Assembly: GCF_003991155.1 (NCBI RefSeq)
Contig: NZ_CP031294.1
Direction: 5' to 3' (one strand)
DNA from: Escherichia coli
Lineage (GTDB): Bacteria; Pseudomonadota; Gammaproteobacteria; Enterobacterales; Enterobacteriaceae
DNA length: 64,000 bases
Positions 18,546 through 18,578 of the stretch are shown here, in pieces. The position numbers and the translations under genes are program-made. Positions within the stretch are counted from its first letter, which is position 1; every line of letters begins with the position of its first letter. The notes beneath the pieces are model-generated. The model was not told the DNA's origin. It saw only the letters and a program-made list of their open reading frames with translations, and searched no databases.

Positions 18546-18578
18546 AATGATTCCATACATAGTAGGTATGGAATCATT
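18546..18578. other. candidate recombinase core site, perfect 13-7-13 inverted repeat
   Basis: AATGATTCCATAC-ATAGTAG-GTATGGAATCATT, about 100 bp upstream of the recombinase ATG. Architecture resembles loxP or dif. Confidence 0.55.

Follow-up and report, generated by a model that had tools for sequence, protein, structure and literature searches.

A 64,000-nucleotide stretch of Escherichia coli DNA (contig NZ_CP031294.1; hereafter the window), which belongs to an SSU5-like phage-plasmid, carries a 33-bp palindrome next to a gene for a tyrosine recombinase. The palindrome is very probably a lox-like site, hitherto uncharacterised, that belongs to a recombinase family of P4-type integrase descent, and comparative data suggest that it is most likely used to keep the plasmid monomeric, by multimer resolution or recircularisation. 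Copies of a single arm recur on both sides of the recombinase gene and within it. From their conservation, these solitary copies are most likely extra binding sites for the same recombinase, kept by selection on DNA.

The palindrome and the adjacent recombinase

The features at and around the site are as follows.

18546-18578: perfect 13-7-13 inverted repeat, with arms at 18546-18558 and 18566-18578 and the spacer at 18559-18565; proposed core recombination site
17344-18447, minus strand: tyrosine recombinase gene ('integrase', 367 amino acids; Pfam PF00589 at 2.9e-10, and PF22022)
18493-18521, minus strand: putative recombinase promoter (-35 TTGATC at 18516-18521, 17-nt spacer, -10 TAATAT at 18493-18498)
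18474-18493, minus strand: LexA (SOS) box TACTGTTTACTTATACAGTG, near consensus and abutting the -10 of the putative promoter
18579-18606, minus strand: A/T-rich, semi-conserved stretch flanking the site towards the cargo (consensus from 26 junction classes)

The palindrome reads AATGATTCCATAC-ATAGTAG-GTATGGAATCATT. The original prediction had placed it about 100 bp upstream of the recombinase gene; its coordinates are exact, and the distance to the ATG is 99 bp. It is the sole perfect 13-7-13 inverted repeat in the window, and in mononucleotide shuffles, perfect inverted repeats with a 7-nt spacer and arms of 11 nt or more numbered 0.04 per window.

For comparison we gathered 89 loci: 4 annotated phages, 5 genomes, 71 IMG/VR contigs, 4 plasmid records, 1 further stretch of a phage record that served for a whole-genome scan and 4 contigs reached via homologous proteins. 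IMG/VR and PLSDB supplied most of the comparative power, and one scan of genome contigs gave five loci only. Of the first 80 related loci, 77 had the palindrome, some 130 bp ahead of the recombinase start, and these 77 form the close clade. Both arms were invariant throughout it, although the recombinases were 79-100% identical and the adjoining DNA only about 66-84%. The 7-bp spacer varied, with at least 10 different sequences that were always A/T-rich (further examples are CTACTAT, CTATTAA, TTGTAAG, TCTTTAG, TCCTTAG, TTGGTAG, TTATATA and TATGTAA). Between loci with otherwise identical flanks it was even found flipped, as ATAGTAG in L004 and CTACTAT in L041; a second flip distinguishes L008 and L071 from the CTATTAA group, which includes L005. 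Among 213 complete E. coli genomes there was no flipped spacer at 99% identity or more, so that flips are rare (L004 and L008/L071 only).

Beyond the close clade, every homologue examined, to as low as 44% identity, had a palindrome with a 7-bp spacer 60-100 bp upstream. In homologues at 44-52% identity both arms were altered at the same two positions, giving TGACTCCAGAC-N7-GTCTGGAGTCA. Palindromes of this type were seen in Pantoea, Rahnella, Xenorhabdus and Providencia, with Photorhabdus intermediate. The arm type thus tracks the protein: TGATTCCATAC goes with recombinases at least 56% identical, and TGACTCCAGAC, in both arms, with those at 44-52%. The Pantoea and Rahnella recombinase genes lie on megaplasmids of 540-570 kb among siderophore-receptor and metabolic genes, each with its own co-varying palindrome beside it (L083, Pantoea agglomerans pAJ2b_A; L084, Rahnella aquatilis pRAZF7). 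They have neither an XRE neighbour nor phage, partition or replication genes close by. Since a lone recombinase with its palindrome occurs on megaplasmids, the system is not confined to phage-plasmids, and the retention of the palindrome there separates every candidate binder but the recombinase from the site.

A recombinase core site would be expected to show invariant arms, a free spacer and symmetric co-variation. Together with the lox-like layout and the fixed position, these traits support the original prediction, which had taken the palindrome for the core site of a tyrosine recombinase. Published work lends support as well: palindromes up to 1 kb from Cre-type recombinase genes proved to be true targets in about half of the cases tested (PMC10250229). 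A literature search with the arm sequences of both types returned unrelated papers only, and in the library searched we found no paper that prints the site; the phage-plasmid papers found mention recombinases in general terms only.

The recombinase is of the simple two-domain type by layout, but lies outside the Cre family. The Pfam matches cover a helical core-binding and a catalytic domain only, and an AlphaFold2 model (mean predicted local distance difference test score, pLDDT, of 85) likewise consists of a helical N-terminal domain and a catalytic domain. Foldseek gave lambda Int(75-356), XerA, XerH, Tn1549 Int and IntI as best matches (probability 1.0). Cre chains ranked below lambda Int, Xer and IntI by fold (Foldseek E of 1e-2 or weaker), and phmmer against the PDB sequences returned no match at E<=1, so none to Cre. 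P4-type relatives at 26-34% identity have the arm-binding domain PF13356, which was not found in the recombinase, and the P4-type model NCBIfam PRK09692 aligns only from profile position 137. By these profile matches the enzyme descends from P4-type integrases and appears to have lost their arm-binding domain. In the family alignment (A1), R185, K211, R284, H307 and Y316 are invariant or nearly so, residues that were assigned by motif position only.

Descent from P4-type integrases would suit an attachment site (attP) for chromosomal integration of the phage-plasmid. The distribution of the site argues against this role: it is carried by 213 of the 5,426 complete E. coli genomes (about 4%), always on a plasmid and once per genome, and there were no chromosomal copies in any of the 5,426. 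A site that is plasmid-borne, single and never chromosomal fits multimer resolution or recircularisation instead. Loss of the arm-binding domain, the homologues on megaplasmids and the perfect symmetry of the site, which heterobivalent integrases do not use, also speak against attP, and we regard it as highly improbable.

The putative promoter matches 8 of 12 consensus positions, below the threshold of 9/12 in our promoter scan; its TTGATC and its -10 are kept in relatives. A LexA-type CTG-N10-CAG motif (TACTG-N10-CAGTG) lies 53-56 nt from the palindrome in all 77 close-clade loci and is absent from the distant relatives. By this sequence match the recombinase promoter is a candidate for LexA control, and because the box abuts the putative promoter, the enzyme is probably SOS-induced, which would tie recombinase expression to DNA damage. 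On the cargo side of the palindrome, CAGAAT (18595-18600) stands exactly 19 nt outside the arm, and loci of Cronobacter, K. oxytoca and Pantoea share the CAGAWT-N19 spacing. The promoter scan reported TTAACA-18-CAGAAT, and the hexamer is possibly an accessory element or a -10 hexamer.

The palindrome might also be an operator only, through which the recombinase as autorepressor, or some other dimeric regulator, would control the recombinase gene and/or the cargo without strand exchange. Its position at about -62 to -95 of the putative promoter suits such a role, conserved arms around a free spacer fit operators too, and the gene of an XRE-type regulator overlaps the 3' end of the recombinase gene. 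In Tn5401, TnpI binding modulates the expression of tnpI and tnpA (PMC7157771). However, the palindrome goes with the recombinase onto megaplasmids that lack the XRE gene, its A/T-rich spacers of 7 bp are typical of crossover regions, and a recombinase that had no recombination site close by would go unexplained. Arms of 13 bp spaced 20 bp centre to centre also have the geometry of recombinase sites and are untypical of helix-turn-helix (HTH) dimers. A purely regulatory palindrome is therefore unlikely in our judgement, and we retain the core site of the recombinase as the preferred explanation.

Solitary copies of the arm

Copies of the arm without a partner were found at the following positions (ORF, open reading frame).

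21998-22013, minus strand: proximal solitary copy AATGATTCCATACATC, in the ORF-free region upstream of the tRNA array
23010-23025, minus strand: distal solitary copy AATGATTCCATACATC, at the start (MIPYI) of a gene for a small hydrophobic protein of 50 amino acids
12515-12530, plus strand: solitary copy AATGATTCCATACATC, within the polymerase III alpha gene (G-CMESL on the coding strand)
17831-17841, plus strand: degenerate copy TGATTCCAAAC, inside the recombinase gene, codons VWNQ

The original prediction had reported the 13-mer at 22001-22013 and 23013-23025 in the same orientation, and both copies are exact, with the 13-mer on the plus strand. The second indeed holds a stop/start junction, an ATGA overlap between ORF 23021-23236 and the 50-amino-acid 'MIPY...' ORF 22872-23024; the proximal copy heads, in most lineages, a mini-ORF of 6 codons only (MIPYIQ and a stop). 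Two copies had been missed. A fifth exact 13-mer, in the opposite orientation, lies at 12515-12527, and the copy at 17831-17841 has one mismatch here and is an exact TTGATTCCATACATC in non-E. coli lineages.

At two mismatches or fewer, the window contains 7 arm matches, compared with 2.0 on average and at most 5 in 100 shuffles; by an arithmetic estimate, about 0.002 further exact copies of the 13-mer would be expected per window. The remaining ~45 kb of a 98.6%-identical genome held no 11-mer core at one mismatch or fewer, so that all copies cluster within 10.5 kb (12.5-23.0 kb of the window) around the recombinase gene. The solitary copies have the common motif (A)ATGATTCCATACATC and are a trait of the whole TGATTCCATAC-arm clade. 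Elements with TGACTCCAGAC arms had no solitary copies within 8 kb on either side, and Pantoea-type recombinase genes contained no co-varying internal copy. Across loci, the two cargo-side copies are always 1,000-1,025 bp apart and lie 1.2-6.7 kb from the palindrome (1.2-7.7 kb for the extra copies on this side). On the other side, the polymerase III copy is found at +6.0 to +6.3 kb and the recombinase-gene copy at about +735 in non-E. coli lineages and +695 in the K. oxytoca type.

Alignments of the loci show the solitary copies as invariant islands of 14-16 nt (Fisher p 5e-6 to 4e-18). Variable columns numbered 1 of 16 in the motif and 79 of 120 in the flanks (60 nt each side) for the polymerase III copy, 1 of 14 versus 108 of 120 for the distal copy, and none of 14 versus 119 of 120 for the proximal copy. 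Loci in this test were picked by the motif, a bias that was removed for the polymerase III copy only, whose position was located via protein alignment. There, all 66 in-clade loci had the exact 13-mer, whereas an unrelated loop occupies the position in three distant relatives; CMESL is thus no motif of the polymerase itself. The copies in the polymerase III and recombinase genes are read in different frames (CMESL versus VWNQ) and show no change at synonymous positions; in outgroup recombinases, (L/I)W(R/M)Q stands in place of VWNQ. Different frames combined with synonymous invariance indicate selection on nucleic acid, not on protein, and rule out homology of MIPY gene starts, the explanation that the original prediction had named as its own refutation. 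The role of the copies is possibly accessory, architectural or regulatory.

All 121 upstream copies point one way and all 93 downstream copies the other, with the ATC side toward the palindrome, a pattern that is weak evidence because only four ancestral positions underlie the count. When the 13 nt beyond a 7-nt gap beside the solitary copies were compared with the arm by eye, no conserved partner arm was seen. Pairing of the solitary-copy spacers in the manner of sfx sites was considered and rejected, as ATCTCAT is common to the distal and polymerase III copies in the Cyrano type only. A conserved CACAAC stands 2-6 nt upstream of the proximal copy.

The same data bear on the possibility that the palindrome is an RNA hairpin or terminator of a toxin operon, or a product of chance, and that the solitary copies are chance matches or remnants of duplicated MIPY genes. 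The site does lie 42 bp downstream of a YafO-like ORF, and two copies coincide with MIPY-type ORF starts. But no T-run follows the stem, the terminator scan did not call the palindrome, and the site persists whatever cargo is upstream. Within the close clade the arms are invariant, with no compensatory change, and Rfam finds in the window only four tRNAs and a sub-threshold match resembling transfer-messenger RNA (tmRNA). Gene-start homology or chance also conflicts with the polymerase III and recombinase copies, which lie in two frames without synonymous change. As far as sequence analysis goes, the comparative data refute this explanation, and we give it practically no chance. A DNA site bound by the recombinase remains our favoured interpretation of the palindrome.

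The variable cargo and the proposed mechanism

In nearly all comparisons the window ceases to match its relatives at 18577-18580; of 206 E. coli plasmids, 189 part from it at 18578-18580, and at least 26 unrelated cargo flanks abut the palindrome. The site is thus the fixed edge of a variable region. The original prediction had held that the segments between arm copies contain exactly the accessory cargo. In part this stands, since the stretch from the palindrome to the nearest solitary arm does hold variable cargo, but the solitary arms form no boundary. Recurrent module boundaries in relatives fall at 19732-73, 19990-98, 21071-76, 21337-73, 21543 and 21732, those at 19732-73 and 21071-76 coincide with predicted terminators, and module ends are intergenic. 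The arms at 22001 and 23013 are inside a block conserved from 21543 or 21732 to 26090, and synteny did not change at either of them.

The further claim that solitary arms mark past or ongoing cassette exchange did not hold up: relatives showed no breakpoint, deletion or inversion at these arms. In more than 80 loci, order and orientation were constant, with no inversions or deletions between arms. No inverted segment was found next to the palindrome, the sole one being a 3.9-kb segment (L058 versus L064) that does not abut it, and no locus had lost the 1-kb interval between the cargo-side copies with ends at the arms. Within the cargo (18579-22000) there was no 11-mer arm match at two mismatches or fewer and no attC-like site. 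One lineage, with a backbone only about 77% identical to that of the window, matches the toxin module (18625-19790, YafO and the 3' end of the glutaredoxin gene) at 92-99%, which indicates that the module moved recently. On one side this close match stops near the toxin stop codon, about 55 bp outside the arm, and on the other within the 3' end of the glutaredoxin gene. Both end points are in homologous sequence and thus point to homologous recombination, not spacer exchange.

A cassette platform, in which the recombinase would capture or swap cargo at the palindrome and the solitary arms as in integrons or shufflons, might be suspected from the many unrelated flanks that diverge at the site. 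The LexA box at the putative recombinase promoter also recalls integron integrases, since intI promoters carry LexA boxes, and the solitary arm-plus-spacer sites resemble the sfx sites of Rci, which have a 7-bp spacer and only one conserved arm. Yet no second site, full or degenerate, flanks any cargo module, and the module boundaries lie away from 22001 and 23013, whose arms sit in conserved blocks. The constant arrangement of the loci, the homologous ends of the toxin module and the spacers of the solitary sites, which are unlike the core spacer, argue in the same direction. We consider such a platform very unlikely. The solitary copies are conserved DNA motifs, not cassette junctions or scars of gene-cassette swapping.

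We therefore return to the palindrome as the cognate lox-like core site of the adjacent recombinase, a reading that we hold to be probable, if well short of certain, with the following mechanism. Each 13-bp arm would be bound by one recombinase monomer, two sites would synapse, and strand exchange would take place over the 7-bp A/T-rich spacer. With arms that are perfectly symmetric, the site would owe its direction to the spacer alone. A plasmid dimer or terminally redundant phage DNA, with two copies in direct repeat, would be converted into monomer circles. With the promoter about 25 bp inside the site and the LexA box abutting it, the enzyme would be made mainly in the SOS response, a timing that would match RecA-made multimers and prophage induction, and recombinase bound at -62 to -95 may tune its own promoter. 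Cargo would be reshuffled by homologous and illegitimate recombination; it can vary next to the site because constraint ends about 28 bp beyond the arm.

Several points weigh against this reading. Its support is comparative sequence throughout, and binding, cleavage and strand exchange are predicted steps. LexA repression would be unusual for a housekeeping enzyme of dimer resolution. The place of the first histidine in box II appears, by motif position only, to be taken by a nearly invariant R281 (FTPRDLRRT). Conserved arms with a free spacer would also suit the operator of a dimeric protein. The inward orientation of the four ancestral positions would arise by chance in about 1 of 16 cases, and a different reader of the solitary motif is conceivable, as these copies have a conserved ATC that the palindrome arms are without.

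A more far-reaching idea unites the palindrome and the four inward-facing half-sites in one SOS-switched system that does more than dimer resolution; we think it doubtful. On this idea, the lifting of LexA repression would allow the recombinase to load on the palindrome and on all half-sites. The result might be a kilobase-scale synaptic or looped complex that imposes directionality, a set of polar barriers round the resolution site, like Ter and KOPS round dif, or throttled expression of the genes that hold the half-sites. If true, selected recombinase half-sites inside essential genes would constitute a new organisational layer for a lox-like system.

Known systems and genomic setting

Cre/loxP of P1, and the Cre-type systems Vika/vox and Panto/pox, share with the proposed system a recombinase gene near two perfect 13-bp inverted arms with a short, asymmetric, A/T-rich spacer. 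The presumed function in multimer resolution or cyclisation is also shared, and P1 is likewise a phage-plasmid. The spacer, however, is 7 bp here and 8 bp for Cre, and the protein has no detectable sequence similarity to Cre; it is nearer to lambda Int, Xer and Tn1549 Int by fold and of P4-type descent. A LexA box and solitary half-sites further distinguish the present locus, and to our knowledge neither is known for P1. For Cre-type enzymes, the rule that the site lies next to the gene has been validated experimentally (PMC10250229).

The nearest precedents for the solitary copies are found in TnpI/IRS of Tn4430 and Tn5401. There, too, the core motifs are symmetric, direction comes from the short spacer only, and extra accessory sites of the same motif occur outside the core: DR1 and DR2 in Tn4430 and further TnpI sites near the ends of Tn5401 (PMC2847244, PMC7157771), where binding regulates a promoter (PMC7157771). 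However, the accessory motifs of TnpI form direct repeats to one side of the core, inside a site of 116 bp, whereas the copies here are 0.7-7 kb away, on both sides, mutually inverted and partly in coding sequence, and there is no transposase. Accessory repeats of the TnpI type were absent within about 100 bp of the core, which is adjoined only by the weak A/T-rich flank. Tn3-family transposons resemble the window in having toxin-antitoxin genes directly beside the res site (PMC7157771). Such pairs differ by lineage beside the palindrome, with YafO in the window and RelE/Phd and ParE/Phd in L082 (1950-2524) and L088 (7101-7666).

In presumed function the site resembles XerCD/dif and cer/psi, which convert replicon dimers into monomers at one short inverted-repeat site per replicon. 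Unlike XerCD, the enzyme here is single and element-encoded, and its site has identical 13-bp arms of a sequence unrelated to dif. In contrast to cer, psi and dif, we found no evidence here for FtsK or for accessory factors of the PepA/ArgR type. Like the palindrome, dif is flanked by inward-pointing polar motifs (KOPS, Ter); their likeness to the solitary copies is an analogy of geometry only.

Integrons (IntI/attI) share a LexA box at the recombinase gene, a site immediately upstream of it and a variable gene array that starts at the site. They differ in that no attC-like sites lie here between modules, the cargo modules that could be characterised are ordinary genes with predicted terminators at their ends, the palindrome is perfect, and cargo exchange has end points of homologous recombination. 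With the Rci/sfx shufflon of IncI plasmids the system has in common the 7-bp spacer and a likeness of one-arm sites to the solitary copies, but more than 80 loci showed no inversion polymorphism between the inverted solitary copies. Such an inversion would destroy the polymerase III or the recombinase gene.

The window was assigned to the SSU5-like phage-plasmids because its positions 16000-24000 are 98.6% identical to Escherichia phage CMS-2020a; blocks of this segment also occur in phages Cyrano and PhiR41_1 and, at about 75%, in Klebsiella phage pJN2-26 and Salmonella phage SSU5. These phage-plasmids (SSU5, pHCM2, Yersinia pestis pMT1 and a Klebsiella group) are common in enterobacteria. 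The palindrome is a candidate determinant of their stability. It adjoins the region in which they acquire cargo, resistance genes included, and offers a clean anchor for comparing that region. PhoH, DNA ligase and nearby genes have been named as neighbours of resistance genes (PMC9600943). The recombinase and its target also form a candidate orthogonal pair, with a 7-bp spacer, a sequence unrelated to Cre and at least two natural specificities (TGATTCCATAC and TGACTCCAGAC).

The neighbouring genes are listed below in their order on the minus strand, with plus-strand genes marked as such.

9262-12780, minus strand: DNA polymerase III alpha gene
between the polymerase III alpha gene and a 70-amino-acid ORF, minus strand: CobS-like ATPase gene, then CobT/VWA protein gene
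adjoining the XRE-type HTH gene: the ORF of 70 amino acids
16963-17349, plus strand: XRE-type HTH regulator gene, overlapping the recombinase gene
18621-19649: YafO-type toxin ORF and its partner
19745-19990: glutaredoxin gene
20164-21072, plus strand: ORF of 302 amino acids
21251-21808: four tRNA genes
between the tRNA array and the ligase gene: ORF-free stretch, then four small ORFs
23396-24718: ATP-dependent ligase gene

The tRNA array differs among close relatives (Ser-Thr-Tyr-Asn in the window, Ser-Thr-Asn in Cyrano, Asn only in pJN2-26), and that of the window (21251-21808) is about 93% identical to the tRNA clusters of phages P7 and D6. The ORF-free ~570 bp at 22014-22584, between the small genes and the tRNA array, are kept across the family at about 75% identity; the sub-threshold tmRNA/tRNA-like Rfam match lies at 22409-22511 (17 bits, E=0.03). 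In phage PhiR41_1 (L004, 10977-15671), the cargo beside the palindrome comprises four ORFs, one for a gadW-like HTH regulator and one of about 826 amino acids, and we suspect a fimbrial-type operon. It is followed by a mobile-element ORF, and the ligase region has apparently been lost.

GC skew was negative over the whole window with no switch at the palindrome, and was uninformative. Two other perfect palindromes were noted, TATATTGGGCGT-AACAA-ACGCCCAATATA at 33220-33248 and, within the CobT/VWA gene, TGATGATTCAGA-ATTA-TCTGAATCATCA at 15513-15540.

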